From: a virus
Lineage: Duplodnaviria > Caudoviricetes
Direction: 5' to 3' (one strand)
Virus record (IMG/VR): IMGVR_UViG_3300048587_000154
Coordinates: 1-61,913 of that record
DNA: 61,913 bases
In this document: one piece after another, positions 21,812 to 46,546 of the stretch
Position numbering within the stretch: position 1 is the stretch's first letter
Layout: every line of letters starts with the position of its first letter
Translations under genes and position numbers: made by a program
The notes under the pieces: model-generated
What the model was told of the DNA's origin: nothing
What the model saw: only the letters and a program-made list of their open reading frames with translations
Database searches by the model: none

Positions 21812-22234
21812 TTAGCTGAACGTGTGGATTGAAGCGCCGAAATCGAGCGTAAACGTCTCGCCCGATGCCAGCGTTATCGAGGAGCCGTAATCCCAGTTGG
21901 AAATCAAGGGATCAGCCGGCGACGTAGGCGTGTCGTTGTACAAGATGGCATAGCGGAGCGGGCCGACCGCGCCCGATGCCGTCCAAGTGATATCGACGCC
22001 GGTCATCGTCACGGTGCCGCCCGATCGCGTCGAGTCGTTTTGCGTGTCCTCGCCGCCTGACGTGTAGCCGTTGGCGGTCGAAAGCTCCGTGGTGTCGGCG
22101 CGAACGGTGTGCGTCGAGGTGTTGGGCGCGGTGTTGGAAAGCAGGGCCTTCAACGTGTCGGTGGTGCCGAACAGGTCATGGACCTTATTCCACATGTCCT
22201 CGGCGAACTTTTCGTATTTCACATATGATGCCAT
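21812..22234 (-). CDS. Putative virion structural protein (140 aa)
   Basis: DTLK.LL..ELS..NGYT.GG..W.ASG..RYAILYNDT..LI..WDYG pattern; AAGGAG RBS. Confidence 0.7.
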   Translation of the reverse strand: MASYVKYEKFAEDMWNKVHDLFGTTDTLKALLSNTAPNTSTHTVRADTTELSTANGYTSGGEDTQNDSTRSGGTVTMTGVDITWTASGAVGPLRYAILYNDTPTSPADPLISNWDYGSSITLASGETFTLDFGASIHTFS

Positions 22235-22247
22235 TTCGTATTGCTCC

Positions 22248-22394
22248 TTAGCGCAATGGGTTGGTGGTGAAGGTTCTGCCGTCGGGCATGGTGACGGTCT
22301 TAGGAGCCGTCAACGTGCGCATGAGAAGCACCAACGCCTGTTGCGTCTGCGCCTCTTGTTGCAGGATGAGCTTGGCTATCTCCTCGAACGTCAT
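22248..22394 (-). CDS. 48-aa microprotein paralogous to the portal C-terminus
   Basis: MTFEEIAKLILQQEAQTQQALVLLMRTLTAPKTVTMPDGRTFTTNPLR fills the gap exactly; below the ORF-track cutoff. Confidence 0.65.
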   Translation of the reverse strand: MTFEEIAKLILQQEAQTQQALVLLMRTLTAPKTVTMPDGRTFTTNPLR

Positions 22395-22405
22395 CGCCTG
22401 GCCCT

Positions 22406-24772
22406 TCAATTCATGGTCGATGGCTTGGCGGTGAACACCCGGCCATCCGGCATCGTCACGCTCTTGGGCTGGTTGAGCGTTTCGATCATCTTGGCGATCA
22501 GCGCTTGTGTCTGCGCCTGCATCTGCATCACCTGTTCCACAAGCTTGTCGGTGTCGCCGTCATCGATCGGCGGTAGACCGACCTCGCCGCGCTTTTGGTT
22601 GTGCGCCGCGATCGCTTCGGAACGCCGGGAGCGGAGCGCCATTTCATGCTCCTCGCGCTTCCAGTCGTGTTCCTGCTTGGCGCGCTCCGACTCGGCCTGC
22701 ATTTCCTGCATCTTGAAGTCGTGTTCCTGCTCGCGCGCCTTGGCTTCGGCTGCGGCCTTGACCTCCTCCGGGTCGGGCTTTGGCTGTTGCTGCTCCGGGG
22801 TCAGCTTCTTGATGAAGCGCGACACGTCCTTATACCCCAGCAAGCCCCAAAGCTCTGTTGCGATGCCAACAGCATCGGGGCGGCATCCGTCGGCAGCAAG
22901 GATGGGCGTCATTTCCATGGTGGACTTCGCGCCCGCCATGAGCTTTTCGACCTTCTGCTTCGAGTCCAACGCGCCTATGCCGACATCAACGCGGACAGTG
23001 ACGGGCAGCGCCTCGAATGACTGCATGACCTCCTCAAGCGTCACCTGCGGCTGTGCCTGTTGCTCTTGCGGGTCGCTGTCCTCGATACCGGGCTTGGGAA
23101 CGACGCCGCCGATGACAAGGCCGGCGTTCTCGCCTGCCACGGCCATGATAAGTTCGTCGCTCTCGTAATACTGGATCAGGCGCACCAACTGGCGCAACAC
23201 AGGCTCCACCCACGTCTCAACCCACACGCGAAGGTCAAACTCGGTCAGCGCGTTCGATGACTGCGACATGAGGTTCATGCCGCCCACGGTCTCGTTAAGC
23301 TGGCGGTTGGTCTGCACCGATCCCGTGGAGAACACGCCGGCAAGCTCATCGAAATCAACGGCCAGGTTGTTCATGTCCTGTTGCGCGCCGCCATCGGGGC
23401 CGGGCGCGCGGTCGAACGTCACATCGTCCTCATCCTCGACCATCAGCGTCGAGTCGGGGCCACGGTTCTGCACTTGCTTGAGGTCGATGTTGCGCCCGCG
23501 CTTGACCTTGGTGATGGGCGAGATTGCCATCTTGCGGGCGTCCAGCGTCAGGTTGACGTTTTCGTTCATTTCCTGCTGTAGCTGCTGCCACGTCTCGACT
23601 GGAGCGGCTGGGAACGCCTTGTGCGCCTCGACGGCGGCGACGCCGCGCACATAGGGACGATCGCCTCTCTGCTCTGGATAGGCCTCACGGGTCGGGCGCG
23701 GATCGGACAGGATGATATGCTCGCCCAGCATCCACCAAGTGTAATCCTCGCCGTCGTAGCGGTAGAACACCTCGTAGAGCCAAAGGATGTCGCTGTCCTT
23801 CGAGGCGTGCCGGCTCTCGTACCGATCGATCCCCGATGTCTCACGCGCCCGGCGCACGCCTTGCGTGTCGCGCTGCTGGTTGGTCTTGCCGGCGCTCTTG
23901 ATCTTGGCAAGGTCGATGTCGTCACGCCATTTGCCGCCGCCAAGGCGCGGTCGCGATGCCTCTCGGCTTACCCACGACTCCAAGTCGCCCTCATTGACCG
24001 GGTAGCCGGCGACGAAATACGCGCCGCGCTGGATCGGATCGCGCCAGTCTGCCGTCGGGTCGATGAACGACTGTTCCGGGGGAATGTTGTCGATCATGAT
24101 GCGATCGGCCTTGATGATCTTCTTCGGCACAATCTCGGATCGCGTGAGCGGCTTGCCATCCTCGCCCGGCAGCGGGAAGCCCGTCGCTTCGTCCGTAACC
24201 GGTTGTGTGACGATGCTATCGACGGTCAGTTCCTCGTACTCCCAGTATTGCTTGGAGACGCATATCCCCTGCAACTGGGCGTCTTGGTGCGCGCCGACAA
24301 CGGTCATGAAGAACGGCGGGCCTGCCTCGTTGCCGCGATCGAGGCGATAATTCAGCACTTCGTGCAGGAAGCGCGCGCCCATGCTCTGCACTGGGTCGCT
24401 CGATCGGGTGGCCGTGATGTTGACCACATCGTTTGTCGAAAACAGCGCTGCGGCTGCCGTGGCGTCGTTCTTGCGAACGGCCATGCGCGTCTTGGGTTTG
24501 AACAGCTTCGAGCGGTTGCGGTACTTCGGCGTATCGTACTTGGTGCCGTTCGGGTGCTTCGACTGGTAGGCGCGGAGGTTGCGCGACCATTGCGCGCGCA
24601 GCGAATTGTTCTGGTACTCGGAAGCCGCATCCAGCGCGCCCTTGAAGAACTTCTTCCAGTCGGCGTCATCCAGCATGTCGGGAGAGGCTGCGGCCTCGTT
24701 GTCATTGACGGCCTTTGAGGCCTCAAGCCCATCTTCGAGCGCGGAGCGTGTGTCAGGCGATGAGAGGGGCAA
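22406..24772 (-). CDS. Portal protein
   Basis: 788 aa; RSKLF.PKTR, ET.GGM..M motifs and a C-terminal coiled-coil barrel; between terL and the head genes. Confidence 0.88.
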   Translation of the reverse strand: MPLSSPDTRSALEDGLEASKAVNDNEAAASPDMLDDADWKKFFKGALDAASEYQNNSLRAQWSRNLRAYQSKHPNGTKYDTPKYRNRSKLFKPKTRMAVRKNDATAAAALFSTNDVVNITATRSSDPVQSMGARFLHEVLNYRLDRGNEAGPPFFMTVVGAHQDAQLQGICVSKQYWEYEELTVDSIVTQPVTDEATGFPLPGEDGKPLTRSEIVPKKIIKADRIMIDNIPPEQSFIDPTADWRDPIQRGAYFVAGYPVNEGDLESWVSREASRPRLGGGKWRDDIDLAKIKSAGKTNQQRDTQGVRRARETSGIDRYESRHASKDSDILWLYEVFYRYDGEDYTWWMLGEHIILSDPRPTREAYPEQRGDRPYVRGVAAVEAHKAFPAAPVETWQQLQQEMNENVNLTLDARKMAISPITKVKRGRNIDLKQVQNRGPDSTLMVEDEDDVTFDRAPGPDGGAQQDMNNLAVDFDELAGVFSTGSVQTNRQLNETVGGMNLMSQSSNALTEFDLRVWVETWVEPVLRQLVRLIQYYESDELIMAVAGENAGLVIGGVVPKPGIEDSDPQEQQAQPQVTLEEVMQSFEALPVTVRVDVGIGALDSKQKVEKLMAGAKSTMEMTPILAADGCRPDAVGIATELWGLLGYKDVSRFIKKLTPEQQQPKPDPEEVKAAAEAKAREQEHDFKMQEMQAESERAKQEHDWKREEHEMALRSRRSEAIAAHNQKRGEVGLPPIDDGDTDKLVEQVMQMQAQTQALIAKMIETLNQPKSVTMPDGRVFTAKPSTMN

Positions 24773-25238
24773 GGTGGCCTCGTCCGGTTAGTCGCGCCTG
24801 CGCGGGCATGGCATTGAGCGCCATCCGCCAGTCATCGACGTTGAACTTGTTGCGGGGCAGGTTGTAGCGCTCAAGCAACTCGCCAGCGCCCTTCAAGACC
24901 GTGCGCTTTCCGCCCGGATCGGTCAGCGTGTCGGAGAGCTTGACCACGTACCAGCGATTGGCCGGCATGATGCCGTTCAGCCTAAGCTTGATGATGCCGT
25001 TGCGACCGTGCTGGCCGATCTGCGCTTCAACGTGCCAGGCGTGGCCGGGATAGCTGCGCTCCAACAGCGCGCCGACCCATTTGACGATTGCCATGTTCGC
25101 GCGCGCCATCGGATCGGGGCGCGGATCGTCGCCAAGGTCCGGGTGTTCGTAGTGCGCCTTGAGATTGAAGCGCGGTGCGCCATTGCGATTGAGGCGCGGT
25201 GCGGCAGGCTTTTTCAGGAACGGCAAGATGTCGGACAT
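24753..25238 (-). CDS. Hypothetical protein (161 aa)
   Basis: GAGG RBS before ATG 25238; L...YPGH.W.V and GELLERY motifs. Confidence 0.65.
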   Translation of the reverse strand: MSDILPFLKKPAAPRLNRNGAPRFNLKAHYEHPDLGDDPRPDPMARANMAIVKWVGALLERSYPGHAWHVEAQIGQHGRNGIIKLRLNGIMPANRWYVVKLSDTLTDPGGKRTVLKGAGELLERYNLPRNKFNVDDWRMALNAMPAQARLTGRGHLAPLIA

Positions 25239-25245
25239 TGCGGCC

Positions 25246-25419
25246 TCATTCGTCGGGATAGGCGGTGTTAACCCGGTTCGGGTCTCCCCGGAAAGTCTTG
25301 CCGGTGAACTCGTAGAGCTTTTCCTTCTTGCGATTGGCATAGAAATCCGGCTCCGACTTCAAAATCTGCGAAAGCAGGGTGAACGTGACGTTCTTCACGT
25401 TGCCGTCGGCTAGTGACAT
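25246..25419 (-). CDS. Hypothetical protein (57 aa, MSLADGNVK)
   Basis: Hand-translated ORF that fills the gap; GAAGGA RBS. Confidence 0.5.
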   Translation of the reverse strand: MSLADGNVKNVTFTLLSQILKSEPDFYANRKKEKLYEFTGKTFRGDPNRVNTAYPDE

Positions 25420-25814: not shown

Positions 25815-25902
25815 CTGCTCATGCTCCCCTGCGCTTTACGGCGCAAGATGTAGCATTATTCGCGGGGCAGCGCGCCACCACCGCCCCAGCGATACCCAGC
25901 TT

Positions 25903-26491: not shown

Positions 26492-29400
26492 CTAGTCCAC
26501 GGTTGCAGGGGTTTCCGGCACTTCGTCATTGGTCGAGGCCGGAAGCGCTTCGATGTCGTAGATGCGCGACGTGGCGTCCACCAAGTCATCCCGCGTGCCG
26601 AACGGGAAATACAGCATTTCCTCCATAAGAGCGCGGGTCAGGTCGTACACCTTGTCCAACTCATCCTTGCGCATGAGCGGCTTGGCATTCAGGTACTCTT
26701 GCCCGCGATCCTTCGCCATCTTCTGCACCTTCAACTCGCCGTCGAGGGGAGTGAAGCTCATGTAGCCCTTCTCGATGTCAGGCTCCCACAGGCAGGTTTT
26801 GCCGTTCGCGTAGACCAAGCCGGGGAAAAAGAAGGTCGAGTATTGCACGTCCGGTTGCAGGCGCTCGACACGATCGCGTTTCGAGTTGCCGCCCTCGCGC
26901 GGCCATGCAAGCTCATGAATGGCGAAGTTGTACTTCTCGGCGCGCATGCGCTCTTGGAAATACTCATCGTCCGATTGCTGGCCGAAGCGCTCGTATCCGA
27001 CCTTCACCAGCATGACGCCCGGCATCTTCGACCATTTCTTGTGGTAGTGCTTCAACTGGTCCCAGCGCTGCGAGAGCTTCATGCGGTGCCTGGCACCGTC
27101 GAGGAAGTATTTGTTGCCCTGCGCATCCACGCCAATGACCGCGATGGCCGTGTTGTCGGACTTGGCCGTGCGCCCGCGCGAAGGATCGGCGAGGATATAC
27201 ACGTTCAGCGCGGCAGGCCGAACGAACCACGGTTTCATCCATTCGGCATGGAACGTCTTTGCCGTGCCGCCCAGCGGGTTTTGAAGCATCTGCGCGTTGA
27301 CGGTCGATAGCTGCTTGACCTTGGCCTTGTCCCATTGCGCTTGCGTCATCATGACCGGCTTGCCGTCCAGCTTGCCATTGTGCGTTGCCGGGTAAAGGCG
27401 CGGCTTGACGATCCCGCGCCCGATCAGGTCGCCATAGGTGTCAGCAAAACTATTCGAGGAGCAAAAGCCCTCAACCACGTAGTTGCCTGTTTCCGTCTCA
27501 AGCCAATGCACGTCGGCAACACCGGCAGCCTCGACCTTGCTTAGCTTGATGCGCCTTGTGGTCAATTGGCCGTACAATGTCTGTGCCAGCTTCTCAAAGC
27601 GTGCCGGGGCGATCTGCGCGAGGAAGCGATAGCGCTCTCGCCATCCTCCGTTGATGAGGAACACACAGCGGTCGTTCCAATGCTTGGCGCTCGGCTTGTG
27701 CCACGCCTCCGACCACTCGAAGCCCAGTTCCGACAAGACGCGGCGGGTTTCGTTGATCAATTCCGGGTGCGCCATCGTTTGCGTGATGGTGACCGCTCCG
27801 CTTGGGTGGTGTTTGTTCTTCTTGATGCTGCCTTCGCCGTCGAAGAAGCCGGCCAGCCAGCCGGCATCGCGGCCTTGATCCTCCTCGATCGGATCAACCA
27901 GTTCGCGCAATGCGATGAGCCTGCCGTCGCATTTCTTGTTGAGGAATGCTCGATCCTTCCTGACGTGCGCAGAAAGGCCGAGCGGAGCGTATTCCGGGCC
28001 ACCGCCATGCGGCCCGCGCCACCATTTGTGATCATCCGTGCAAACGACGGAACGGCCATTGTCCAGATGGTAGCGGTTGACCGCCTGGCAGAAGTGAACG
28101 CCACGGTTCACAACCTTCGCAGGGCGCAGCCAGCGCTTGCCGTCTCGAAGCTCCCAGCCAACGACTGTATCGCCTATGCGAACGTCTGCGATCGGCTTGT
28201 GCGACCAATCTCCCATCAAGATGCGCTGGTCGCCGCGCGTGCAATAGCGCGTGCCCACCATCCATTCCCGGCCCTCTGCGGTGCCAAGGTTGGTCGATAG
28301 CTCGTAGCTCGATGTGGTCTTTGCCACCTGCTCCGGGGTCGTCACCGACTCGCGCGTCACCATGTCGTCGTAGTTGCGCAGCGCAAAGTGCTTCGATGTC
28401 GGTTGCCCATCGACCACGCCCCAGCCTTCAACCGTGGCTTCCTTGGGGTTGCCCTTGCGCCGGATCGTGAAAGCCTGCTCCGACCAGATGGGAGCCTCGC
28501 CCTTGGGCTTCATCCAGCAGATGTCCGGGTAGATCATCCGCATTTCCGATGTCTCGAACTCGCGCCTGATCTGCGCGACGAACTTCTTTGCGATGGCTGC
28601 CGTGTGGGCAAAGATGCCGATCGTTATCTCCGGGTCATTGATGATTTCCTGCACACACCCGGCAAGCGTGATGATGGTCGAGTTGTGGGTGGTAATGTGC
28701 TGGCGACCGGTAAGGTATAGGCCATCGGTGCGCGCCACCTGAATACACCGCACCGGGACGCTGGCTACCGGCTCAACGCTGATGATGGCGTGTCGCCCGG
28801 AGCGTGTGCGTTTGGCATTCGACGCCCGCGCCTGTTTTCTTGGCAGGTGAAACACGGCTGGACCGTCGGCCTGCACTTGGAAGCTCACCTGATAGTACGG
28901 GTAGTCATCGCCCTTATATTGCCCAACTGGGCGACGGATCGACGGCTTGAGGCCGAGACCGGCAGCTAGGTCGAATACGTCATTTGCGAGCCGTTCCGTC
29001 GCATTGCAAAATGTCGCCGTTCCCCGTCCATCGCAGTGGCCGTCCGTGTCCATGAGACCGCGCAACAACTCCCAACGATCCTCTATCGATGCGCATTGGT
29101 AGGGGCCTGGGATGTGCTTGTTGGTGAACGTTCCCGCCTCACGAAGAAGGGCCGCAAGACCATAGATGCCGACCGCAATACCCCTGCCGCGCCGACGACG
29201 GGTCCGGTGCCCAAGCGCCTCGATCCTTTCGATGATCGCGTTGTCGAAAGGATCGTTGGCTATAGCCGCCGCGCCGCGCGCTCCATCCCCAAGCCATGCG
29301 CCGAGCACATAGGGATGGAGCGGCAATGGCGATGATGATGCGCCAAAGTCCAGCGCAGCAGCCACGGGTACGCTAGGCCACACCGCGCCCTTGATGAGCC

Positions 29401-30010
29401 GCGCATGATCGACCTTCTTCATCAGCGTCCGCGTATCGATAGTAACCCTGGCTCGACCGGCTCTCTTGTTGCCGCTCACCCGCGCGCGGTTGGCGATGTC
29501 CACTGTCCACAGGTGATCGCCGCTGCACACGATGCTCTCACCCTTGTCGAAGGTCACGCGGTAGCAGTCGGCGTCGGTGAAGATCGGCGTTTGGGCCACA
29601 ATGCGGGTTGGCTTCCCGTCGGGGCCGAACACCTCATCGCCAACCTTGAGGTCGCCGAAAGGTCGCCATCCGAGCGGTGTTATCGTCGGTGTTTCAAGAC
29701 ATTCGGCTTTGTAATGGTAGCGCGCCCATAGGTCCAAGTGGCCGTCGGGATCGCCCTCGACCTCGCGGCAGCGATCGTAGAGCCATGGGTGGAAGGCGTC
29801 TGTGCGCGCCAAGATGTTTGTCAGCAGGAAATATCGATCGACCGCGCCGAGGTAGGCGATATCCCCGATCGCGCCCACCTCGGCAATTTGTGTGTAGAAG
29901 TCCACGGCCTCCATGAAATCCATGGCGTGCAGTTCGCCAATCTCGGCATAGCGCACAAGATCGGGGCTGGCGGATGCACGGTACAGGGTGCCTTGGTACT
30001 TCTCGAACAT
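26492..30010 (-). CDS. terL: Terminase large subunit with two inteins (1,172-aa precursor, about 566 aa spliced)
   Basis: After removing inteins: P-loop WARYHYK/ST, Walker B YDD, GTRY; nuclease DPS..SD.TA and DDLVDA. Start placed at MFEKY. Confidence 0.9.
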   Translation of the reverse strand: MFEKYQGTLYRASASPDLVRYAEIGELHAMDFMEAVDFYTQIAEVGAIGDIAYLGAVDRYFLLTNILARTDAFHPWLYDRCREVEGDPDGHLDLWARYHYKAECLETPTITPLGWRPFGDLKVGDEVFGPDGKPTRIVAQTPIFTDADCYRVTFDKGESIVCSGDHLWTVDIANRARVSGNKRAGRARVTIDTRTLMKKVDHARLIKGAVWPSVPVAAALDFGASSSPLPLHPYVLGAWLGDGARGAAAIANDPFDNAIIERIEALGHRTRRRRGRGIAVGIYGLAALLREAGTFTNKHIPGPYQCASIEDRWELLRGLMDTDGHCDGRGTATFCNATERLANDVFDLAAGLGLKPSIRRPVGQYKGDDYPYYQVSFQVQADGPAVFHLPRKQARASNAKRTRSGRHAIISVEPVASVPVRCIQVARTDGLYLTGRQHITTHNSTIITLAGCVQEIINDPEITIGIFAHTAAIAKKFVAQIRREFETSEMRMIYPDICWMKPKGEAPIWSEQAFTIRRKGNPKEATVEGWGVVDGQPTSKHFALRNYDDMVTRESVTTPEQVAKTTSSYELSTNLGTAEGREWMVGTRYCTRGDQRILMGDWSHKPIADVRIGDTVVGWELRDGKRWLRPAKVVNRGVHFCQAVNRYHLDNGRSVVCTDDHKWWRGPHGGGPEYAPLGLSAHVRKDRAFLNKKCDGRLIALRELVDPIEEDQGRDAGWLAGFFDGEGSIKKNKHHPSGAVTITQTMAHPELINETRRVLSELGFEWSEAWHKPSAKHWNDRCVFLINGGWRERYRFLAQIAPARFEKLAQTLYGQLTTRRIKLSKVEAAGVADVHWLETETGNYVVEGFCSSNSFADTYGDLIGRGIVKPRLYPATHNGKLDGKPVMMTQAQWDKAKVKQLSTVNAQMLQNPLGGTAKTFHAEWMKPWFVRPAALNVYILADPSRGRTAKSDNTAIAVIGVDAQGNKYFLDGARHRMKLSQRWDQLKHYHKKWSKMPGVMLVKVGYERFGQQSDDEYFQERMRAEKYNFAIHELAWPREGGNSKRDRVERLQPDVQYSTFFFPGLVYANGKTCLWEPDIEKGYMSFTPLDGELKVQKMAKDRGQEYLNAKPLMRKDELDKVYDLTRALMEEMLYFPFGTRDDLVDATSRIYDIEALPASTNDEVPETPATVD
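27452..28243 (-). mobile_element. Intein 2 in TerL (264 aa, Cys1, one LAGLIDADG motif)
   Basis: GTRY|CTRGDQ...CTDDHKW...LAGFFDGEG...NYVVEGFCSSN|SFADTY. Confidence 0.85.
28682..29707 (-). mobile_element. Intein 1 in the TerL P-loop (342 aa, class-3 type, LAGLIDADG endonuclease)
   Basis: HYK|AECLETP..TP.GW...DHLW...LGAWLGDG...LRGLMDTDG...VRCIQV...ITTHN|ST. Confidence 0.92.
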
Positions 30011-30020: not shown

Positions 30021-30998
30021 TTACACGATGTGCGGCGGCGACGACATGATCGCAAAGATGCGGTGGATCGCCATATCCACCTGCTCAAGCCCCTTCTGGC
30101 CGGCATACCAGTCTTTGTTCGACAATACCCAGCCGCACAGTTCGGAAATGGCAATGCGTGCCGCTGCGAGATTGCCCAGCATGTGGATATTGCGCAGATC
30201 GCGCTCCTTCTCCGACCAGTAGCCGATCGCTTCCGCCTTGCCGTCGCCGGTCTCCTCCTTCATGCGCTTTTCGAAATCCTTGGCGCTGCGCTTCATCACT
30301 TCCTCACGGAGTGCGGCGGCTGCACCGTCCTCTGCGGCTTGGGTCTTGGGGCTGTCGATCCTCCCCGCCATGAGCGCAAGAATGTCAGCGAGCGCTGTGA
30401 ATGCTTCATCCGGGTCCGGGTCTGCCCCAACCTTTGACTTGGCTTGGAACTCCATCAGGACCGCCAGCGCGGATGACAAGGCCGCGTCGAGTTCATCCCT
30501 GATGTGCCTCTTGCTGGCCTGGCGGTTGTCACGATCCATCTGCACGTCATCGCGACCGCCGTTGAGAACTCGGTTGATGGCTGCGTCGAGGTCGTTGAGG
30601 CATTCTTCGTCAAGGTCGGGCACACCCTCGCCAAGCGAGACTTTGATGGTGATGCAGCCGGGCGGCACCTCGATGTCGTCCCACGCCTGCTCGTAGTGCG
30701 CCCGCTTGCCGTCGTCGGTATCGGCGATGGCCTCGTTGTGGGCGTCGATCGCCTCGCTTATGGCCTTGGCGAAGCCGGGGAACAATGCGCCCGTGCTGGC
30801 CGCACCGCCGCCGCCATCCATGGTGTTTGGGGCGGCGCTCATCACGACGATGCCGTTCTTGATGTAGCTCTCAAGCTGCGTCGCCTGCGCGATGATGTCG
30901 GCGGTCTGCATGCCGTATCCGTGAGCGTCCAAAAGCTGCCCGATCAGTTGCGCCCGGATCGCGACCGCTTCATTCGCCTTTTCGTATTTCTTGCCCAT
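30021..30998 (-). CDS. Hypothetical protein (325 aa)
   Basis: AGGAG RBS; long ORF with typical codon bias. Confidence 0.75.
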   Translation of the reverse strand: MGKKYEKANEAVAIRAQLIGQLLDAHGYGMQTADIIAQATQLESYIKNGIVVMSAAPNTMDGGGGAASTGALFPGFAKAISEAIDAHNEAIADTDDGKRAHYEQAWDDIEVPPGCITIKVSLGEGVPDLDEECLNDLDAAINRVLNGGRDDVQMDRDNRQASKRHIRDELDAALSSALAVLMEFQAKSKVGADPDPDEAFTALADILALMAGRIDSPKTQAAEDGAAAALREEVMKRSAKDFEKRMKEETGDGKAEAIGYWSEKERDLRNIHMLGNLAAARIAISELCGWVLSNKDWYAGQKGLEQVDMAIHRIFAIMSSPPHIV

Positions 30999-31010
30999 TT
31001 CGTATTTCTC

Positions 31011-31235
31011 CTAGTGTGTTTGCCCATTTCGTATTGCTATGCCAGTGTCGCGCCACGCCTGCGACGGTGCGGTGCGGTAGGGCGACGGCTGGGTGGTAAA
31101 GTCAAGCTCGCGCTCCCATGCCCTCGCCCGGTTCACCCGGCGCAGCGCTTCGGCCTCATGAATGCGGAGACGCGCCGCAATCTCAAGGGTATCGTGCCCC
31201 GCTTTGAACAGGGTGTAGGCGTCCTTCTCTTTCAT
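31011..31235 (-). CDS. Small HTH protein
   Basis: LF..G.DT.EIA..L.I.EA pattern. Confidence 0.6.
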   Translation of the reverse strand: MKEKDAYTLFKAGHDTLEIAARLRIHEAEALRRVNRARAWERELDFTTQPSPYRTAPSQAWRDTGIAIRNGQTH

Positions 31236-31327
31236 TTGCGATGCCTTTCGATCAACTCGAACACCAGCACGACGGCAAAGAAGGCCAGCCAGATTGTCAC
31301 GTCGATCAGTGATATCGATTGTTCCAC
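31232..31327 (-). CDS. 31-aa membrane peptide
   Basis: GTG start with GGAG RBS, one hydrophobic helix (IWLAFFAVVLVF), ATGA overlap. Confidence 0.45.
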   Translation of the reverse strand: MEQSISLIDVTIWLAFFAVVLVFELIERHRK

Positions 31328-31363
31328 GCCGTCGCTCCGGTGTCCGCTTATTTTCGTATTCGT

Positions 31364-31392
31364 ATTGCCGCTATCTGTCCAGCGCGGTAAAT
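31364..31392 (+). promoter_or_regulatory. Putative sigma70 promoter of the brnA-like gene, flanked by three TTCGTATT motifs
   Basis: ATTGCC-N17-GTAAAT; motif copies at 31353, 31359 and 31401. Confidence 0.45.
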
Positions 31393-31428
31393 GCTTCCAA
31401 TTCGTATTGCTGCCATGGAGCGAAGGAT

Positions 31429-31734
31429 ATGGCCATCAAGATCGCCTCTACGGTCGATGAGACCGCCGCTAAGCCCGTCAAGCGGGCGCGCCGTGCGCCA
31501 CAGGCCTCAAAATCAAAGCTCGCAAAGCTGCAAAAACCGGCAGAAACGCCCGTTGCGGCCAAAACGCAATCGGAAGCCCCAGCCGAAAAGCATGGGCGCG
31601 GCAGGCCAGCGACCGGCAAAATCATCGTCACGCTGCGCCTCGATCCCGATGTGGTGGAGGCCTTGAAGGCGGGTGGTGCGGGCTGGCAGCCGCGCGCCAA
31701 TGCTCATCTGCGCAAGGCGCTGGGCCTCAATTGA
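31429..31734 (+). CDS. brnA: BrnA-family ribbon-helix-helix antitoxin-like protein (orphan)
   Basis: GRP...K..VTLRLDPDVVE..KA.G.GWQ.R.N..LR signature; inverted relative to neighbours. Confidence 0.85.
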   Translation: MAIKIASTVDETAAKPVKRARRAPQASKSKLAKLQKPAETPVAAKTQSEAPAEKHGRGRPATGKIIVTLRLDPDVVEALKAGGAGWQPRANAHLRKALGLN

Positions 31735-32415: not shown

Positions 32416-32613
32416 TCAATCGCGCTGCCCCTCTTTCTGTTGCTGGGCTTTCTGGCGAACCTTGTCAGCGAAGTAGCGGCCTTTGACCACCTCGTACCAG
32501 TCGTGGAACGCGCCGGCGCGGCACCGTGAGCATGGGCGCAGTTCGAAGTCTGCGGAGAGGACGGTGCCCTTTCCGCCACATGCCGCGCATGTTTTCGTAT
32601 TGCTGTCCGTCAT
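32416..32613 (-). CDS. Small Zn-finger protein (65 aa)
   Basis: CxxCGGKG...CxxC; ATGA overlap. Confidence 0.6.
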   Translation of the reverse strand: MTDSNTKTCAACGGKGTVLSADFELRPCSRCRAGAFHDWYEVVKGRYFADKVRQKAQQQKEGQRD

Positions 32614-32837
32614 TTCGTATTTCTCTTGATGGCGTTGCCGCTGGTGATGGTGCGGTGGCCGTCCTCGAACTCCAACAGGATCGAGTTGAAGTTCTTGGGC
32701 GCTGGCGGGGTGCCGACGATGGCAATGCCCGGATCGACCGGCTGCGCCGGCATGCGGCGACTGCGGGCGAGGACTCGGCACGCCTGGCCTTTGCGGTCGC
32801 CTTCGTTCCAGCGGTAGACGTAGCGAAAATCAGTCAT
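32610..32837 (-). CDS. Hypothetical protein (75 aa)
   Basis: Overlaps both neighbours; RKGQ.CRVLAR..NS.L.EFEDG motif. Confidence 0.6.
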   Translation of the reverse strand: MTDFRYVYRWNEGDRKGQACRVLARSRRMPAQPVDPGIAIVGTPPAPKNFNSILLEFEDGHRTITSGNAIKRNTK

Positions 32838-37869: not shown

Positions 37870-38136
37870 TTATTCCCTTTTTCCGTACAGTGCCTCACTC
37901 ACACGGCCCTGATTGACGCCAAAGTGAACACCAACGTCGAGTTGAGACATGTTGGGGTGCTTGCGCGCGAACTTGCGTATTTTCTCTGCGAGCTTTTCGG
38001 TCATCTTGTTGGATGATATCGGCGCTCTGGTCGCCAACTGCCTGCGGCCAAGCTCGTCGGCCAGTTGGCTTAGACGGGGTATGCCGTGCTTGACGGCAAG
38101 CTCTCGAAGCTCCTTGGCTACCTCTGGTATCCTCAT
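37870..38136 (-). CDS. HTH protein
   Basis: SQ..VG..FGVNQGRVSE.L. Confidence 0.7.
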   Translation of the reverse strand: MRIPEVAKELRELAVKHGIPRLSQLADELGRRQLATRAPISSNKMTEKLAEKIRKFARKHPNMSQLDVGVHFGVNQGRVSEALYGKRE

Positions 38137-39920: not shown

Positions 39921-39972
39921 TGCTCAAACTCCCCAGTTCGCAATGTTTAATGTGTGATACCTGTAAATACGA

Positions 39973-40001
39973 AAATAGCGCCAGAAAGCGCTATCGTCAA
40001 C
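39973..40001 (-). promoter_or_regulatory. Strong sigma70-type promoter for the accessory block
   Basis: GTTGAC-N17-CTATTT versus the Sinorhizobium consensus CTTGAC-N17-CTATAT. TTCGTATT follows the -10 element; the spacer is the palindrome ATAGCGC-N6-GCGCTAT. Confidence 0.65.
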
Positions 40002-40024: not shown

Positions 40025-40492
40025 TTATTTGCCAGCCTTGATTTCCCTCATCTTTGCCAACGCCTTGTTCAAAGGCACCACGTTGCCCTTGTTGTCGTCT
40101 CGATCGAGCGACGGTTCTGGCGGGGCTTCCTGCTTGCCGTGCAGGCTCTCATGCGTGAGCGTCGGGCTATCCTTGAAGCCCAAGCATTCGGCGATGAACT
40201 TCTCCGCTTCGATCGCGGCCTTGTGGTCGCCTGCCTCGGCGGCGGCGTCGGCGCGGTTTATCATGCGGGAAAAAATCTGCTGGGCGCTGAACGCCGTCGT
40301 CTCGACCGTCTTGTTGACCGCCTGGCGCTGCAAGTCTCGAAGGAACTCTTTGATGTCCGGGGAAGCCGCGAGCCGGAGAGCGTTGGGATGATGCCTCTTG
40401 TAGCCTGCGTATGCGTAGGCGTCTTGGATCGTCATCCCGTCGAAGATCGCTAGCGCGAACTTCTTGTGCTTGTCGCTTAGCTCTTTTTTCAT
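40025..40492 (-). CDS. terS: Terminase small subunit
   Basis: LS.K..KF.......AY..AGY...A.RL...P.I HTH, then A....D..AA..A. Confidence 0.75.
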   Translation of the reverse strand: MKKELSDKHKKFALAIFDGMTIQDAYAYAGYKRHHPNALRLAASPDIKEFLRDLQRQAVNKTVETTAFSAQQIFSRMINRADAAAEAGDHKAAIEAEKFIAECLGFKDSPTLTHESLHGKQEAPPEPSLDRDDNKGNVVPLNKALAKMREIKAGK

Positions 40493-42009: not shown

Positions 42010-42301
42010 AGCGGCCTCCGCTCAAGTCTGCCGCCAGCCCGGCCATGCTGACGCCTCGGTTTTGCACCTGCGCCGGCACGTTCTGCCATTCGTCATCCCA
42101 GCATTCTTGGTTGAGCCACGTCGAGGGATGCTTGAAATCGATCCGCTCCGGCTTGTGTTGGATATACGCCTTGATGGCGTTCAGCATCGTTTCCAGCGTC
42201 GTTTTCTTGATCGCCTTGTCGAAGGCCTTTCGGGCGGCTCCCTTAGCGATGCGACGCGGGTACGCGGACCAAAACACGGAAAAAGCCTCGTCCTTTGTCA
42301 T
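41993..42301 (-). CDS. Replication-initiator C-terminal-domain-only protein (102 aa)
   Basis: F..FW.AYPR...K.AA.KAF...K.PSTWLN...W.DE; no N-terminal HTH. Confidence 0.75.
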   Translation of the reverse strand: MTKDEAFSVFWSAYPRRIAKGAARKAFDKAIKKTTLETMLNAIKAYIQHKPERIDFKHPSTWLNQECWDDEWQNVPAQVQNRGVSMAGLAADLSGGRYGRNQ

Positions 42302-42861
42302 GCCGTTATCCCCCTGTCTGTGTAGCCGAACTCTCTCTCCTTTTCGCTGCGCCAGCGTTCCACGACTGATCTGTCTTTGGAGTATTTGGAAAGATTTTTC
42401 CCATTAAGATCGTGAATGCGCGCGCACCATCCGTCCGACTGACCGTGCTTGTAGACGCCCTTTCTGCCACTGGTGTTGGTGGTGGGAAGTTTCGTATTGC
42501 GCTGATTTAGACGCCTCGATCCATTTCTAAGGTTGCGCTTCTTGTTATCGCCAGATGTGCCGTTGAAGTGGTCGATTATGGTTGGGTCACTCCCATTCAC
42601 GATCTTCCAGATGATCCGATGCGCATAATAGGAACGACCGTCCAGCGTGCCTTTGATGTGGCCATGCGTGTTGGGTGAGCCAAATTCTTTCCCCGCCATA
42701 GTTGAGTTGCGGCGGCGCATTTCCCATTGCGAGTCCCGTTTGCAGTTTTGGAAATGCGATAGAGGGCGCGCGCGCCACCTAAGCGATCCAGATTTGGGAT
42801 CGTAATCGAAACATTCCCTCAAATAGTCAGCCGAAGGGAGCGGCGTTGGCTTACGTGTCAT
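42298..42861 (-). CDS. HNH homing endonuclease
   Basis: YDP.SG.L.W, AHRIIW, IDH.NG...DN...NLR, NTSG.KGV; visibly AT-richer. Confidence 0.85.
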   Translation of the reverse strand: MTRKPTPLPSADYLRECFDYDPKSGSLRWRARPLSHFQNCKRDSQWEMRRRNSTMAGKEFGSPNTHGHIKGTLDGRSYYAHRIIWKIVNGSDPTIIDHFNGTSGDNKKRNLRNGSRRLNQRNTKLPTTNTSGRKGVYKHGQSDGWCARIHDLNGKNLSKYSKDRSVVERWRSEKEREFGYTDRGITA

Positions 42862-42864
42862 GCT

Positions 42865-43284
42865 TCATCCCTCATTGACGGGCGTAAGAAAAACCACGCA
42901 TGGAAGCCCGTCGTCCCGCCATGCGTATTTCAGGTCTCGAACGTACTTGTTCGAGTCGTCGGTGATGACGCGGTTCTTTACCAGCGCATCCATGACGGAT
43001 TTGTCGCAGTTGCCGGCGTCGCGCTCGCGCTTGTCCGGGGCGACGAGTCGAACGGTTACACTAACCCGTTCTGGAAGCAATATGCCTGCGGCATTCTTCT
43101 TCATGCCGCGTGTCTGCAAGAAGATCATCCGCTCGGCCTTCTTCTGCCAATCCTCGTAGCGTGATGTCGGAGCGCGCGTGTGTATCCAGCGGAACGGCGG
43201 CGATTTGCTGCGAAAGCTCACATCCTTGAAGCAAGCCGAAAGAGGGATCGGGAATGGAAGCTCAAGGCGCAGTTGATCGGTCAT
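42865..43284 (-). CDS. rusA: RusA-like Holliday junction resolvase
   Basis: PD.R.RD..N..K...DAL....I.DDS. Confidence 0.75.
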   Translation of the reverse strand: MTDQLRLELPFPIPLSACFKDVSFRSKSPPFRWIHTRAPTSRYEDWQKKAERMIFLQTRGMKKNAAGILLPERVSVTVRLVAPDKRERDAGNCDKSVMDALVKNRVITDDSNKYVRDLKYAWRDDGLPCVVFLTPVNEG

Positions 43285-43874
43285 GGCGTTGCCTTGTCGA
43301 ATTTGGTCGCGACACGCCGGCACATTTCGATGAACTCTGCCATCGGCAGACTTTGCTTTGCGAAATTAACCTGCTTCGTGACAAGATGAACGTTGCCGGG
43401 AACATACCCGTGAGCGCTGTCGATCCGATCTATGGAAGCGTTTCCACGCCCATGCTTTTCACCTCGGAAAAAATAAAGCGGATCGCCCGTCATGGCGCAT
43501 TTTCCACCCTGATCGTCATACATCTTGGCAACAAATTCGATGGTCAATTTCCATTCGATCCCGCGTCGCTCTGCCTGGGCGACGAAGTTGCGATAGGCGG
43601 TGCCTGTCACGGCTCCGCACCCCCGCCAGCCGGGACTATTCACCCCTCTCGCGACGCCGCGCGCGCATAATTTGCAGGAATTGGCCATTCCTCGCATCAG
43701 AAGCGAGGCCGCTACCTCATCTTCTTGCCCGCAATCACAACGCATGATCCACATCTGGTTACCACGCCGACGGGCTATCTTCTTAACTACGATGCGCGTA
43801 CCAAAGCGATGACCAACATAATCAGCGATCTTGTATTTCGATCGCTCCGGCAACTTCTTGTTAAGCGTTCCCAT
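43281..43874 (-). CDS. HNH-type homing endonuclease
   Basis: G.RFG..V..W..RCDCG..SC, Q.GKCA.TG, SIDRIDS..GY..GNV..V...VN..K. Confidence 0.8.
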   Translation of the reverse strand: MGTLNKKLPERSKYKIADYVGHRFGTRIVVKKIARRRGNQMWIMRCDCGQEDEVAASLLMRGMANSCKLCARGVARGVNSPGWRGCGAVTGTAYRNFVAQAERRGIEWKLTIEFVAKMYDDQGGKCAMTGDPLYFFRGEKHGRGNASIDRIDSAHGYVPGNVHLVTKQVNFAKQSLPMAEFIEMCRRVATKFDKATP

Positions 43875-44463
43875 CGAATTTACCCGCCTCATTTCCCCAA
43901 GTTGTCCATCCGGCCCTGCTCTGCCGTGAGAAAAGTTCCAGATAAGGACCGTCGCAATATCGCTCCACACGCCTGAAAAATTCATCTGGTTTGCGCGAAT
44001 GCTGCCTGACAGGGGACAGCATGACTTCGGGAACGTCTTTCGCCTTTCGGCGTGCGCTTCCGCGACGCCCCAAGATTGCAAATTCTGCATTTTTTCTTGT
44101 GGTCATTCCTAAGCCCAAATGCAGATCGGTCTCCATCAGCGGGTTGAACGTGGCCGCGTCGAAGTTGCGGCGAAGCTTGATCCAGACAAAGCCCGACGCC
44201 GACGGCTTGAAGCCCCATGCCCGCATGATCGGCAGGTGCGCGCCGATGACCAGCAACGGGCCGGGAACCCACATCATCAGGTGACACGCCTTGTCGGCGA
44301 TCGTCTTGACCGGCATGGCCTCGATTTCCTCAAGGCTCATTGTCTCGTAGTGGCGGTCAGGGTTGCGCACCTCTTTGTGCTCCTTGCGAACACGAAAGCG
44401 CCATGGCGGATCGGCCACGATACACCCGAATTTCTGGCCTTCCAGACTGGAAAAATCGACCAT
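43861..44463 (-). CDS. MT-A70 family adenine methyltransferase
   Basis: I.ADPPW, Y.TM, WGF, W.K, HSRKP, ELFSR, WGNE. Confidence 0.92.
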   Translation of the reverse strand: MVDFSSLEGQKFGCIVADPPWRFRVRKEHKEVRNPDRHYETMSLEEIEAMPVKTIADKACHLMMWVPGPLLVIGAHLPIMRAWGFKPSASGFVWIKLRRNFDAATFNPLMETDLHLGLGMTTRKNAEFAILGRRGSARRKAKDVPEVMLSPVRQHSRKPDEFFRRVERYCDGPYLELFSRQSRAGWTTWGNEAGKFDGNA

Positions 44464-44464
44464 G

Positions 44465-44932
44465 CTATTCCTTGATGCCCCGCAACGCCGCGCGCTCCTG
44501 CGCGGTGCCTTGTCCCTTCGACCAGCCGGCATGTTCACAACAGTAGGACTTGCCCGGCTCGGTCGGATTTCCGCAAAACAGGTATTCGCCGTCAAGCCGG
44601 GTGGTGTCGCCGATCGTGGGAACATCATTGATCGGCCATCGGCATTCGTTGAGTTTTAAGTCAACAAGGCACACCGCGCGGCACTCGAACGTTGTCTGAC
44701 GAACTTTCGGGAGAGGTTTCGGCTCTGGCTCCGGCGCTGATTTCTTCGGAGGATGATTGCGCCGCATCTTCTCGGATGGCCGGTTCTCCCCCAGTTTCAG
44801 GGAGAGGCGTAGGCAGCGGCCCACGACGGCGTTGACGGACCTTCCGACCTTACAGGAAATGGCGCGGGCGGTTAGATCGTCCGCCACCATTTCCCGAAGC
44901 ATTTTATCCTCGGTTTCTGTCCACGCTTTCAC
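44465..44932 (-). CDS. gcrA: GcrA cell-cycle regulator homologue
   Basis: WT....L...S.NAV.G...RL; L..L...CRWP..D..FCG......YC.EH. Confidence 0.88.
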   Translation of the reverse strand: MKAWTETEDKMLREMVADDLTARAISCKVGRSVNAVVGRCLRLSLKLGENRPSEKMRRNHPPKKSAPEPEPKPLPKVRQTTFECRAVCLVDLKLNECRWPINDVPTIGDTTRLDGEYLFCGNPTEPGKSYCCEHAGWSKGQGTAQERAALRGIKE

Positions 44933-44950
44933 GTCCCCCGCACCCGAAGC

Positions 44951-45682
44951 TTAGTGAAGCGCTGCCCCGGCATCCTTTTCGGGGTCAAGCTCCGCGCCGG
45001 GGTCTGCTGCATCGAACTCGGCGTGTACTTGGTCTACGTCCTCGCCATCGGCGTCAGGATTTGGCGCGGCTCCGGCCTCCGTGTCCTCGGTATCCGTGTC
45101 AACCACGTCATCCTCGCCGTCCTGTTCGCCCTTGATGAGCGTTTCGTCGCCGACCGCCGCATCCATTTCCAGAATGCGCTTGTACTCATCCATACCGTTT
45201 CGGAAGGCTTCAAGCCAGGCTTGGCCCTGCTTGCTCTCGACGGCGTAGGGGATCGATCCTTCGCCCTCACCGCGTAGCGCCGCCATGCGCCCATTGTGTG
45301 CGGCGGTCTCGATTGCCGGTGTGCGCCCATCGACGTAGGCGAACAGGTCGAGTTGCTTCTTCTCGATCGCAAAGCCCAAGATCGCCAGATATTCGAGGGT
45401 CTTTACCAGTTCGACAACAAGTTCGTCGCGGTCGATGCTCGACTTGATCGCCAGCGCCCGCTTGGCTGCCTTGATGTGCAGGCCCTTGGCCTCGACGTGC
45501 TTCACGACATTGCGATAGCTGCCGGTCTCACTCTCCAACCGGGTCTTGGCGCGCGCCAGCTTGCCAAGCTGGACGGCAGCTATGGCGCGATCTTCCGGGC
45601 CGTTGTGCAGCGGGCCGGGACGATCGCCTTCATCTTCTTCGGGTTGCTGCGCGCGAGCAGCCTTCTTTGGCGCTTTCACCAT
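44951..45682 (-). CDS. GapR-like nucleoid protein with acidic tail
   Basis: HN motif, K..G...KA.K.A....K..Y...LG..Q.DLF; GGAG RBS. Confidence 0.55.
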   Translation of the reverse strand: MVKAPKKAARAQQPEEDEGDRPGPLHNGPEDRAIAAVQLGKLARAKTRLESETGSYRNVVKHVEAKGLHIKAAKRALAIKSSIDRDELVVELVKTLEYLAILGFAIEKKQLDLFAYVDGRTPAIETAAHNGRMAALRGEGEGSIPYAVESKQGQAWLEAFRNGMDEYKRILEMDAAVGDETLIKGEQDGEDDVVDTDTEDTEAGAAPNPDADGEDVDQVHAEFDAADPGAELDPEKDAGAALH

Positions 45683-45704
45683 AGGTTTCAGTCTCCGTTG
45701 TGGT

Positions 45705-45971
45705 TTAGGTCGAAAGGTCGTTGCGGATGATGGCAAGGAGCTTGTCCAGCGGCTCATCACCTGTTGCCAGGCTAAGCGCTTCGGAAACCGTGATCTTTCC
45801 AGTCTTGATGAGGAGGAAGATTTTCAGCGCGCCGTCGGCGGTGCGTGTCCCGGCTTCCAGCTTCGATAGCTGGCCCTGTGTGATCCCGCAAAAATCGGCC
45901 ATTTCGCGTTGGCTCATGCCGTTCTGTGTGCGGAACAAGCGGATATCTTCGGAAGTCAGGATTTGTGTCAT
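45705..45971 (-). CDS. Cro/XRE-family HTH regulator
   Basis: IR.FR...GMSQ.EMA...GITQ..LS.LE.G. Confidence 0.85.
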   Translation of the reverse strand: MTQILTSEDIRLFRTQNGMSQREMADFCGITQGQLSKLEAGTRTADGALKIFLLIKTGKITVSEALSLATGDEPLDKLLAIIRNDLST

Positions 45972-46049
45972 ACCCAAGCGATGCCGGCAGAATGCGATCT
46001 AGTCAATGCCCTTGGAATGTTCTGCACCGCTGATGCTGACAATCGATCC

Positions 46050-46465
46050 GGTTTTTTGCTGCTCTACTTCCTTCTTCCTTGGTTCTTAATCCTTAAGGCT
46101 TGACCTTGAGAGGAGGGAAGCGAGGGGGTTAAAGACCCCCTACCCAAGCAGACAAATCAATGTCCACAAGGGGAGGAGGATCGCTTGCACAAACTTGACC
46201 TCTCGTTTCGGTCGCTCGTTCGGCAGGGTGCCTTTCGGAAACCCGTCCTCTGTTTCAGGCTGCACCGTAGGACTTTCGACCCCCGCGCACGCGGCTACGC
46301 CTGCCAGATTTGCACTGGTCTGCCGCACAAAACGAACGGGAGGGGACGCATCGGGACTTGAGGGGACAGTTGGGAGACGCTATGTATTGGCCTCACTGTC
46401 CGATATCGGCTGCGACACCTCTCGGATAGTTCTCACGCCTCGGTCTTTGCAGGACCGGGGCGTTA
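46050..46465 (-). ncRNA. Candidate ~410-nt structured RNA (primer-RNA-like)
   Basis: Several GNRA-capped stems, a long-range helix with G-U pairing on this strand, a G-tract and a purine-rich tail; no credible ORF. Boundaries inferred. Confidence 0.55.
46357..46385 (+). promoter_or_regulatory. sigma70 promoter of the small antisense RNA
   Basis: CTTGAG-N17-CTATGT, one mismatch per box to CTTGAC-N17-CTATAT. Confidence 0.65.
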
Positions 46466-46472
46466 CCTTTTT
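46391..46472 (+). ncRNA. Candidate ~80-nt two-hairpin antisense RNA
   Basis: Stems 46395-46430 and 46435-46463, each completed by a G-U pair on the + strand, followed by TACCTTTTT. Confidence 0.6.
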
Positions 46473-46546
46473 AGAGCGCGACTCCCCGCACATCGTCAAT
46501 CGAAATTATTTTTCGTATTGCTATCGCGCGATGCCCGTGGCATTGT
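46471..46546. promoter_or_regulatory. Divergent promoter pair with a TTCGTATT motif between them
   Basis: Leftward TTGACG (46499-46494)-N17-CTCTAA; rightward TTGCTA (46518)-N17-CATTGT; motif at 46512-46519. Confidence 0.5.

Follow-up and report, generated by a model that had tools for sequence, protein, structure and literature searches.

A sharply defined, putatively regulatory 8-mer at gene starts and promoter-like sites of an uncultivated phage

Why would a phage repeat one short asymmetric word, letter for letter, at its gene starts? The question is raised by the 8-mer TTCGTATT in IMGVR_UViG_3300048587_000154, a complete IMG/VR virus record from an uncultivated phage whose 61,913 bp form the window analyzed here. 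An initial annotation had located 13 copies by eye and offered two explanations, operators for a phage repressor or antisense pairing between transcripts. We find that the word is enriched, sharply bounded, placed at gene starts and promoter-like positions in two opposite polarities, and retained in close relatives, and we regard it as a real, sharply defined, putative regulatory word of this phage. Its copies may be operator- or stoperator-like sites for one sequence-specific, most likely phage-encoded DNA-binding regulator, a reading that we hold to be quite possible though short of an even chance.

All 13 positions match exactly; the + strand carries 12 of them and the − strand the remaining one, at 39966. 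Dinucleotide shuffles contain the word 0.67 times on average (standard deviation 0.88, maximum 4; 0 of 100 shuffles reach 13) and an order-3 Markov background predicts 0.83 copies (p = 7e-12), which bears out the early estimate of under one chance copy. By enrichment it is the top-ranked 8-mer of the genome (the other enriched 8-mers are coding words), and its reversed, non-complemented control has 0 copies in the genome. Allowing up to one mismatch gives 39 matches against 25.6 expected, and the one-mismatch variants taken by themselves are not enriched; because these inexact copies (26) match expectation (~25), the motif is all-or-none. The extension of the core that had been noticed by eye is likewise real: the 9-mer AATACGAAA has 11 copies against 0.20 expected, and alignment of the 13 copies gives a full motif of ~13 nt, W-T-TTCGTATT-K-C-T (T at −1 in 11 of 13, G or T at +8 in 12 of 13, C at +9 in 11 of 13, T at +10 in 9 of 13), with no further conserved positions in that alignment beyond ~13 nt.

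The copies are confined to 22–46.5 kb of the genome and gather at gene starts (gene map from a crude codon-usage caller and family scans, ~67 proteins being scanned). Twelve of the 13 copy centers lie within 75 nt of a predicted start (random 0.20–0.28) and seven within 20 nt (random ~0.06), and 7 of 13 copies are non-coding in a region (20–47 kb) of which non-coding DNA makes up 7.9%. The 13 copies form only seven clusters, and at cluster level the significance is modest (p ~6e-3 to 6e-5). The densest set, six copies in 430 bp, flanks gene g39 and the divergent ribbon-helix-helix (RHH) gene g40. Two polarities are evident, eight copies reading AATACGAA in the sense of the local gene and five reading TTCGTATT; a full-text literature search for both words returned primer lists only and no description of the motif, supplementary files lying outside that search. 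The sequence AAUACGAA is identical to what we take to be part of the 530 loop of alphaproteobacterial 16S rRNA.

The copies that we term class A stand at the starts of g29, g38, and g43, three accessory genes read leftward. In the mRNA sense, AATACGAA takes up the gap from the ribosome-binding site (RBS; GGAG/AGAG) to the ATG, and a second copy follows further into each gene, at the 18–24 nt that the initial annotation had given. These copies and their genes are as follows (strand in the sense of the local gene; aa, amino acids):

22235–22242 (−): class A copy directly 5′ of the g29 ATG and 3′ of a GGAG RBS, in the 13-nt gap behind the g30 stop codon.
22211–22218 (−): internal copy of g29 over codons 6–8 (K-Y-E), 24 nt from the upstream copy.
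21812–22234 (−): g29, 140 aa, phrog_644, a very large conserved family; without homologue in the five whole relatives G001–G005.
30999–31006 (−): class A copy directly 5′ of the g38 ATG and 3′ of an AGGAG RBS.
30981–30988 (−): internal copy of g38 over codons 4–6 (K-Y-E), 18 nt from the upstream copy.
31028–31035 (−): extra class A copy over the final g39 codons (GIAIRNG), 29 nt ahead of the copy at the g38 ATG; ATGGGCAA comes next, as at g38.
30021–30998 (−): g38, 325 aa, assigned to no family; immediately precedes the large terminase subunit.
31011–31235 (−): g39, 74 aa, helical at the N-terminal end and modeled with low confidence in the tail; flanked on either side by motif clusters.
32614–32621 (−): class A copy directly 5′ of the g43 ATG, overlapping the last g44 codons at an ATGA stop/start overlap.
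32594–32601 (−): internal copy of g43 over codons 5–7 (N-T-K), in a frame unlike that in g29 and g38, 20 nt from the upstream copy.
32416–32613 (−): g43, 65 aa, CxxC...CxxC zinc-ribbon-like.

These copies sit in gaps of 0–13 nt between genes, and both members of each pair fall within −9 to ~+23 relative to the AUG; the internal copies use two reading frames, encoding K-Y-E twice and N-T-K once. The AATACGAAATG at 31028 is no evident gene start, opening only a 27-codon out-of-frame open reading frame (ORF). Folding against shuffles predicts all three class A regions to be unstructured or open, the g39/g38 boundary reaching −5.8 kcal/mol against −12.2 in shuffles (z = +3.4; 200 of 200 shuffles fold better). 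Similarity extends past the core, AATACGAAATGGGCAA being present twice 29 nt apart (at the end of g39 and upstream of g38) and the g38 and g43 upstream regions agreeing over 29 nt at 79% identity. This similarity, the unstructured initiation regions and an internal g29 copy of coding ancestry (discussed below) would suit an origin without any dedicated reader, in which the copies are relics of local duplication or exchange of initiation regions, kept since an A-rich unstructured spacer favors translation. We hold such an origin to be highly improbable: no decayed copies exist, the motif is kept where its flanks diverge, and such an origin gives no account of class B, whose copies occupy −10-like positions and read in the opposite sense.

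In class B, the first copy ahead of each of g40, g63, and g76 reads TATTTT(T)CGTATT 45–62 nt before the ATG, in the orientation of that gene (TTATTTTCGTATTCGTATTGC at g40, CTATTTTCGTATTT at g63, TTATTTTTCGTATTGC at g76), and g40 has a third copy nearer its start:

31353–31366 (+): two overlapping class B copies (TTATTTTCGTATTCGTATTGC) in the 193-bp g39–g40 intergenic region, 62–75 nt upstream of the g40 ATG.
31401–31408 (+): class B copy, likely in the 5′ leader of g40, whose ATG begins 20 nt further on.
31429–31734 (+): g40, an orphan BrnA-type RHH antitoxin homologue (Pfam E = 5.7e-16); sole rightward gene inside the leftward arm.
39966–39973 (−): the only − strand copy of TTCGTATT, class B, in the 104-bp g64–g63 intergenic region, 45 nt upstream of the g63 ATG.
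46512–46519 (+): class B copy (TTATTTTTCGTATTGC) within the 607 bp between the divergent genes g75 and g76; the g76 ATG follows 59 nt downstream.

In all three regions a TATTTT hexamer runs into the motif, its final bases doubling as the motif's opening ones, where a −10/+1 region would be expected. The initial annotation had placed these copies, in the sense-strand reading found here, over the −35 or start region of three predicted promoters; the overlap with the start region stands, through the −10-like hexamer and the expected start, and that with the −35 does not. The g63 copy stands in TTGACG-17-TATTTT-CGTATTT, a stretch that can also be read as a hairpin with a T-rich tail behind it, and a terminator-like hairpin lies 49 nt to the left of the 46512 copy. 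Upstream hairpins are not general at the copies, only 42491 (an additional copy, inside g69) falling within the lowest 5% of background folding energies.

Three sequence features of these regions stand beside the motif. The g75–g76 divergent region (45972–46578) is unusually long at 607 bp and holds a strong + strand terminator-like hairpin at 46435–46463 with a T-run, which suggests an unannotated rightward small transcript. The sequence ACTGGGGAGTT occurs exactly twice, at 39927–39937 (−) in the g63 leader and at 46563–46573 (+) in the g76 leader. The 10-mer ATTGTTCCAC also occurs exactly twice, at 31318–31327 and 46542–46551, only beside the g40 and g76 copies; its first base differs in L009, a closely related fragment described below.

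Could the element itself be a promoter? On that account a modified or phage-directed RNA polymerase would recognize TTTCGTATT, in its TTCGTATT orientation, as a promoter or initiator element, class B driving g40, g63, and g76 and class A driving short antisense RNAs across the starts of g29, g38, and g43. A single orientation rule then fits 13 of 13 copies, and both the distance of class B from its genes and the sequence shared by the g63 and g76 leaders are as a promoter would have them. Phage-specific promoters are, moreover, the commonest kind of sharply conserved repeat in phage genomes, and the T4 late promoter, a bare 8-bp −10 element, is comparable. We nevertheless find this account distinctly unlikely, as no sigma-like factor or RNA polymerase was found among the ~67 scanned proteins, a giant protein encoded by the phage (see below) matches DarB-like families and, of a virion RNA polymerase family, only a non-catalytic part, class A copies are without the TAT prefix of class B, and we know of no precedent for tandem antisense promoters 18–29 bp apart at three gene starts.

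We then asked how far the motif is retained. The 11.5-kb fragment L009, 95–99% identical in blocks and lacking the whole g43–g45 segment, keeps 8 of 8 copies in its span. Its 193-bp g39–g40 spacer carries 11 substitutions and one insertion, 0 of them in the 22 motif bases, a result whose chance probability of ~0.28 makes it only consistent with nucleotide constraint. Copies embedded in genes use rare codons (AAA for 17% of Lys, AAT for 20% of Asn, ATA for 8% of Ile, CGA for 8% of Arg), and protein relatives 8–47% diverged retain the residues that the motif encodes. Two g39 homologues (92% and 82% identical) keep the C-terminal GIAIRNG of the 31028 copy though the surrounding tail varies, and in P0004, the sole g38 homologue and a mosaic, 13 of the first 53 residues differ (~25%) and MGKKYEKA is kept. 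From the rare codons, the g39 tail, P0004, and L009, all comparisons of sequence, we judge the motif to be under nucleotide-level constraint.

Retention ends with close relatives. Conservation, which the initial annotation had named as a check, was found in L009 and not in G001–G005, the five whole relatives showing no related enriched word and no BrnA homologue; portal-based searches yielded 19 IMG/VR and 16 metagenome loci with 0–2 copies each, all at ≤56% identity except L009 (portals 30–56%). Genes g29, g38, g39, g40, and g43 are without homologue in the relatives, where a terS-like gene abuts the large terminase and the g24 homologue comes next after the portal; in the present phage, g63...g38 (10 kb) and g30...g25 (3.7 kb) are intercalated by comparison, and because synteny reveals these segments as intercalated we class the motif-bearing genes as accessory. 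Scanning IMG/VR for the architecture AATACGAAATG-N5-25-AATACGAAA gave 18 stretches, only the L009 contig being a true match, and scanning the genome collection gave at least 120 stretches, those among the matches listed being all AT-rich genomes or unrelated tandem elements. A genome search with g38 found no match, and searches of IMG/VR with g38 and g39 found the L009 contig only. Runs X1–X4 hold contigs of relatives ~5% diverged; no RNA run was listed among those matching the 30–40 kb stretch of the genome.

How might such a word act? The operator idea remains the best single explanation of the predicted sites, and in adopting it we infer a protein reader that works at the DNA level and represses. 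One regulator would bind the ~13-nt asymmetric W-T-TTCGTATT-K-C-T. Upstream of g40, g63, and g76, the bound protein would lie over the TATTTT −10-like hexamer and the expected start and so block initiation. In tightly packed leftward operons, two or three sites would surround each of the g29, g38, and g43 start codons, where the protein could serve as a roadblock to read-through transcription or as an insulator of accessory genes, stoperator-style. The class B placement, 45–62 nt before the ATG at a −10-like hexamer, is the classical place of an operator; a DNA-level site covers all 13 copies whichever strand they occupy; and the dense set around g39 and g40 is the usual arrangement at a regulator gene. 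The enrichment without surplus inexact copies, the concentration in non-coding DNA and near gene starts, and the nucleotide-level constraint speak for this reading as well.

Several observations weigh against a DNA operator. The opposite polarity of the two classes relative to local transcription is unpredicted by a DNA model and forbidden by a stoperator model, and the spacing within copy pairs is uneven (6, 18, 20, 24, 29, and 42 bp). A sigma-70 scan (16–18 bp spacing) passes only 1 of 3 class B sites, TTGACG-17-TATTTT at 40000–39972, and yielded two sites against 5.5 expected in shuffles; because the scan gave fewer sites than shuffles, the single pass at g63 is not evidence by itself. No integrase or recognized immunity repressor came to light among the ~67 scanned proteins. 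The g29 family (>7,000 proteins) has an N-terminus conserved as ..VKY(E/Q).F., and at its homologue loci in IMG/VR (47 of 49 used, one truncated match and one L009 fragment being dropped) 12 of 47 read AAATACGA at the K-Y-E/Q codons and 2 of 47 the whole 8-mer; because K-Y-E/Q is family-wide and AAATACGA stands at those 12 loci, the internal g29 copy is largely ancestral coding sequence. (None of the 47 loci has the motif before the ATG, so that the upstream g29 copy is a lineage-specific addition, a point in favor of the operator reading.) A further copy with a coding explanation is the one outside both sets above:

42491–42498 (−): copy inside the HNH endonuclease gene g69, over the N-T-K codons of an NQRNTK stretch.

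The conserved-looking NQRNTK protein motif explains this copy, which may be incidental; the contig of run X1 is without g69. Copies free of a coding explanation therefore number nearer 10 than 13.

The operator reading also calls for a binder, and none of the candidates stands out, which weighs on the same side. The initial annotation had named a BrnA-like RHH protein and a Cro-like protein, the former being g40 and the latter g75:

45705–45971 (−): g75, 88 aa, XRE/Cro-type helix-turn-helix (HTH); first gene of the leftward arm and a candidate regulator by position only.
37870–38136 (−): g57, 88 aa, a three-helix HTH of Psq/CENP-B-like type, preceded by a helical hairpin.

As a binder, g40 is disfavored, since three canonical BrnTA loci, whose RHH regions are 63–79% identical and share the VTLRLDPDVVEA strand, contain 0 copies within ±3 kb. 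Upstream of g40 there is no BrnT gene, canonical BrnT–BrnA pairs being found in other phages (L066–L068), and the orphan may be an anti-defense gene. Gene g75 encodes an ordinary small XRE HTH without a feature suited to an asymmetric site. The structure model of g57 is confident (predicted local distance difference test 92.9), its profile match to CENP-B/Pax-type HTH is weak (E ~1e-3), and its structural matches to bipartite HTH are all at E>0.3; we rejected it as a binder on the finding of a strongly enriched 9-mer (log10p<−10) in 5 of 66 family loci against 4 of 43 control loci. Over the g57-family loci TACGAAA is not enriched either, at 66 occurrences against 64.6 expected. The protein g39 has no PDB sequence match, and its model is too shallow to classify. 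By position only, g39, g43 (zinc ribbon), g64 (terS-like HTH), and g75 are candidate readers.

Other phages carry repeats of their own at comparable places. In the provirus record G007 (69.4 kb; L275, L336–L339), a GGTACGAAACGTACC-like near-palindrome of 15 bp is present 13 times, with 10 copies in intergenic DNA. Several copies border on or run into a start codon (e.g., TACGAAATGG, an arrangement also seen at g29 and g38), and one coincides in part with a promoter-like site, TTGACC-17-TACCAC. This repeat resembles our motif in its core TACGAAA(TGG), its 13 copies and its abutment on start codons; it differs in being a near-palindrome, that is a dimer-type operator, whereas the present motif is asymmetric, and g57, an HNH gene, and an endolysin are all that the two phages have in common. 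The likeness is a lead, the chance of a shared 7-mer among the enriched motifs screened being roughly 6% by estimate; no publication on the G007 repeat was found in the literature searched. In the provirus record G006 (91.8 kb; L255), the palindrome GCAATTAATTGC occurs 52 times (≤1 mismatch), many copies lying directly before RBS and ATG, and its reversed control has 0 copies. G005 (L043–L046) contains AAACGTTGCC eight times, partly as inverted pairs in intergenic DNA, and this sequence probably serves G005 as an operator of its own.

The opposite polarity of the two classes bears most directly on whether the word is read in RNA. There, AAAUACGAAA would bracket the AUG of leftward mRNAs within the ribosome footprint and be masked, either (a) by complementary UUUCGUAUU in the leaders or 3′ end of g40, g63/g64, and g76 transcripts, acting as antisense, or (b) by a sequence-specific RNA-binding translational repressor, the logic of T4 RegA. 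Action in RNA is possible, if on balance doubtful. It is the only model that requires opposite polarity (AATACGAA in the mRNA sense in class A, TTCGTATT in the sense of the downstream gene in class B); both copies of each class A pair lie within the ribosome footprint; the class A regions are predicted to be open; and an all-or-none 8-nt core is typical of base pairing. Variant (b) gains from 11 of 13 copies lying in regions that leftward transcripts must cross. Against these points, with TATTTT as the −10, the RNAs at 39966 and 46512 would start inside or after the motif and so be without the seed, which weakens the antisense proposal of the initial annotation. The duplex is estimated at only 10–11 AU-rich bp, three separate regulator RNAs for three targets would be uneconomical, and the class B leaders fold like shuffles (z −0.5 to +0.5, none differing) without an Rfam match; variant (b) leaves 39966 and the −10-like context of class B unexplained. 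In its most specific form, an internal RNA–RNA circuit in which UUUCGUAUU seeds from the g40, g64/g63, and g76 units pair with the two AAAUACGAAA sites around the g29, g38, and g43 starts, the proposal is rather unlikely.

Returning to the operator reading, we compared the motif with the phage systems it most resembles. Cluster A mycobacteriophage repressors bind 13-mer asymmetric sites in promoters and short intergenic spaces, as set out in the available part of one report (PMC9283540). The stoperators described there (L5 gp71, TipsytheTRex repressor) and our motif are alike in being ~13-nt asymmetric words in many copies with strong orientation bias and high conservation, and both stand at promoter-like sites (predicted in our case) and in very short gaps at gene boundaries (PMC9283540, same part). 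By that account, stoperators keep one orientation to transcription and reversal kills function, whereas the present motif has two classes of opposite polarity; cluster A genomes have >20 sites genome-wide, the present phage 13 in 24 kb, as pairs and triplets (PMC9283540). The motif sequence is unrelated to stoperators, and neither a temperate module nor a monomeric repressor with two DNA-binding domains was found among the ~67 scanned proteins, no direct gp71 search having been made.

Start-associated sequences (SAS) of cluster K phages are 13-bp asymmetric repeats in 11–19 copies, 3–7 bp before mostly ATG starts, of one orientation but for a single reversed copy away from a gene start, found in a limited part of the genome and only in that group of phages, according to the available portion of their description (PMC3203893). 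Shared with SAS as described there are a copy abutting the ATG (three genes and one pseudo-start here) and the presence of 12 of 13 copies on one strand (PMC3203893). SAS contain the Shine–Dalgarno core AGGAG (consensus GGGATAGGAGCCC), whereas our motif, of unrelated sequence, stands 3′ of GGAG and shares only AG; that portion of the description gives SAS neither a second intragenic copy nor an opposite-sense promoter class, and the present motif has both, at only 3–4 genes (PMC3203893). The analogy drawn by the initial annotation with stoperators and SAS is thus apt in the appearance of the sites and fails as membership on the defining features: the motif resembles a hybrid of stoperators and SAS and is a member of neither, because its orientation is non-uniform and it is without the RBS content and sequence of SAS.

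A third comparison is with localized nicks. The genome of phage tf has 14 nicks at a 9-nt consensus, all in the top strand, 11 of 14 exact and with few one-substitution variants, in the part of the report available to us (PMC3517423). The nick sites of tf, T5, and phiKMV-like phages share with our motif a short exact asymmetric word in ~14 copies, all or nearly all of them on one strand, with few variants and in genomes with direct terminal repeats; the same part of the report mentions no link of these sites to gene starts or promoters, which the present motif has (PMC3517423). Close pairs are a feature of our motif and not of nick sites. The copies could on this model be sites of a strand-specific nicking enzyme that leaves localized single-strand interruptions in virion DNA, for which 12 of 13 copies on one strand, the all-or-none core, the ~13 copies, the terminal repeats, and several HNH genes would speak. 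The model is very unlikely, since nicking at pairs 6–29 nt apart on one strand would release short oligonucleotides, the range of the copies is limited to 22–46.5 kb, one copy is on the other strand, and placement at gene starts does not fit. Sigma-54, extracytoplasmic function (ECF) sigma factor, LexA box, Chi site, pac site, iteron, and translational bypass explanations were rejected, none fitting the positions.

The genome in which the motif is set has record ends that repeat for 127 bp. Its long leftward arm begins with g75 and runs through replication and accessory genes (among them a methyltransferase, RusA, HNH endonucleases, and a replication-initiator-like gene) and onward through g38, the large terminase subunit, the portal (22406–24772), the major head protein, and tail genes; the short rightward arm (46579–51879) contains an exonuclease, a RecT-like protein, and an HNH endonuclease. 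Scans of the genome for Rfam families and tRNAs found none. A giant leftward ORF of ~4,390 aa (2–7696 (−) and 56316–61913 (−)) spans the 127-bp terminal repeat and ends the leftward arm; it matches DarB-like antirestriction proteins (E = 1e-86) and methyltransferase and lytic-domain families, and its match to the virion RNA polymerase family is to a non-catalytic stretch only (E = 1.3e-8). The large terminase gene (26492–30010 (−), 1,172 aa) has an HNH match at aa 714–789, and two segments of it, of 797 and 1,026 bp (~27445–28243 and 28681–29708), are skipped by contigs of runs X1, X2, and X3; because those contigs join across them, the segments look like intein or homing-endonuclease inserts without counterpart in close relatives. 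A terS-like gene (40025–40492 (−)) lies 10 kb from the large terminase with ~25 accessory genes between, the homologue in G002 and G003 abutting the terminase. HNH endonuclease genes are represented by g69, g71, and g83 in addition to the terminase insert; three free-standing HNH/endonuclease VII-type genes (42298–42861 (−), 43281–43610 (−), and 50817–51185 (+)) lie in the lowest-GC part of the genome, and the run X1 contig has 66 other letters in place of g69. The product of g74 (44951–45682 (−)) resembles ribosome modulation factor only weakly, its match (E = 0.0024, 18.4 bits) falling below the 27.9-bit cut-off.

Well-described genome-wide asymmetric control words are found in only a few phage groups, as stoperators, SAS, and nick sites, and the present phage is a compact example, its 13 exact copies falling into two positional classes of opposite polarity and including pairs on both sides of start codons. 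Were the sites operators, they would define the regulon of a regulator of accessory genes inserted in the conserved packaging and head module. Were they to act in RNA, leaders of mRNAs would be antisense regulators within a phage, and the internal circuit, if true, would have ordinary mRNAs double as trans-acting antisense regulators that time translation of g38 (packaging-proximal), g29 (head region), and g43 (zinc ribbon). At either level, DNA or RNA, the motif would mark the co-regulated genes of an uncultivated phage.

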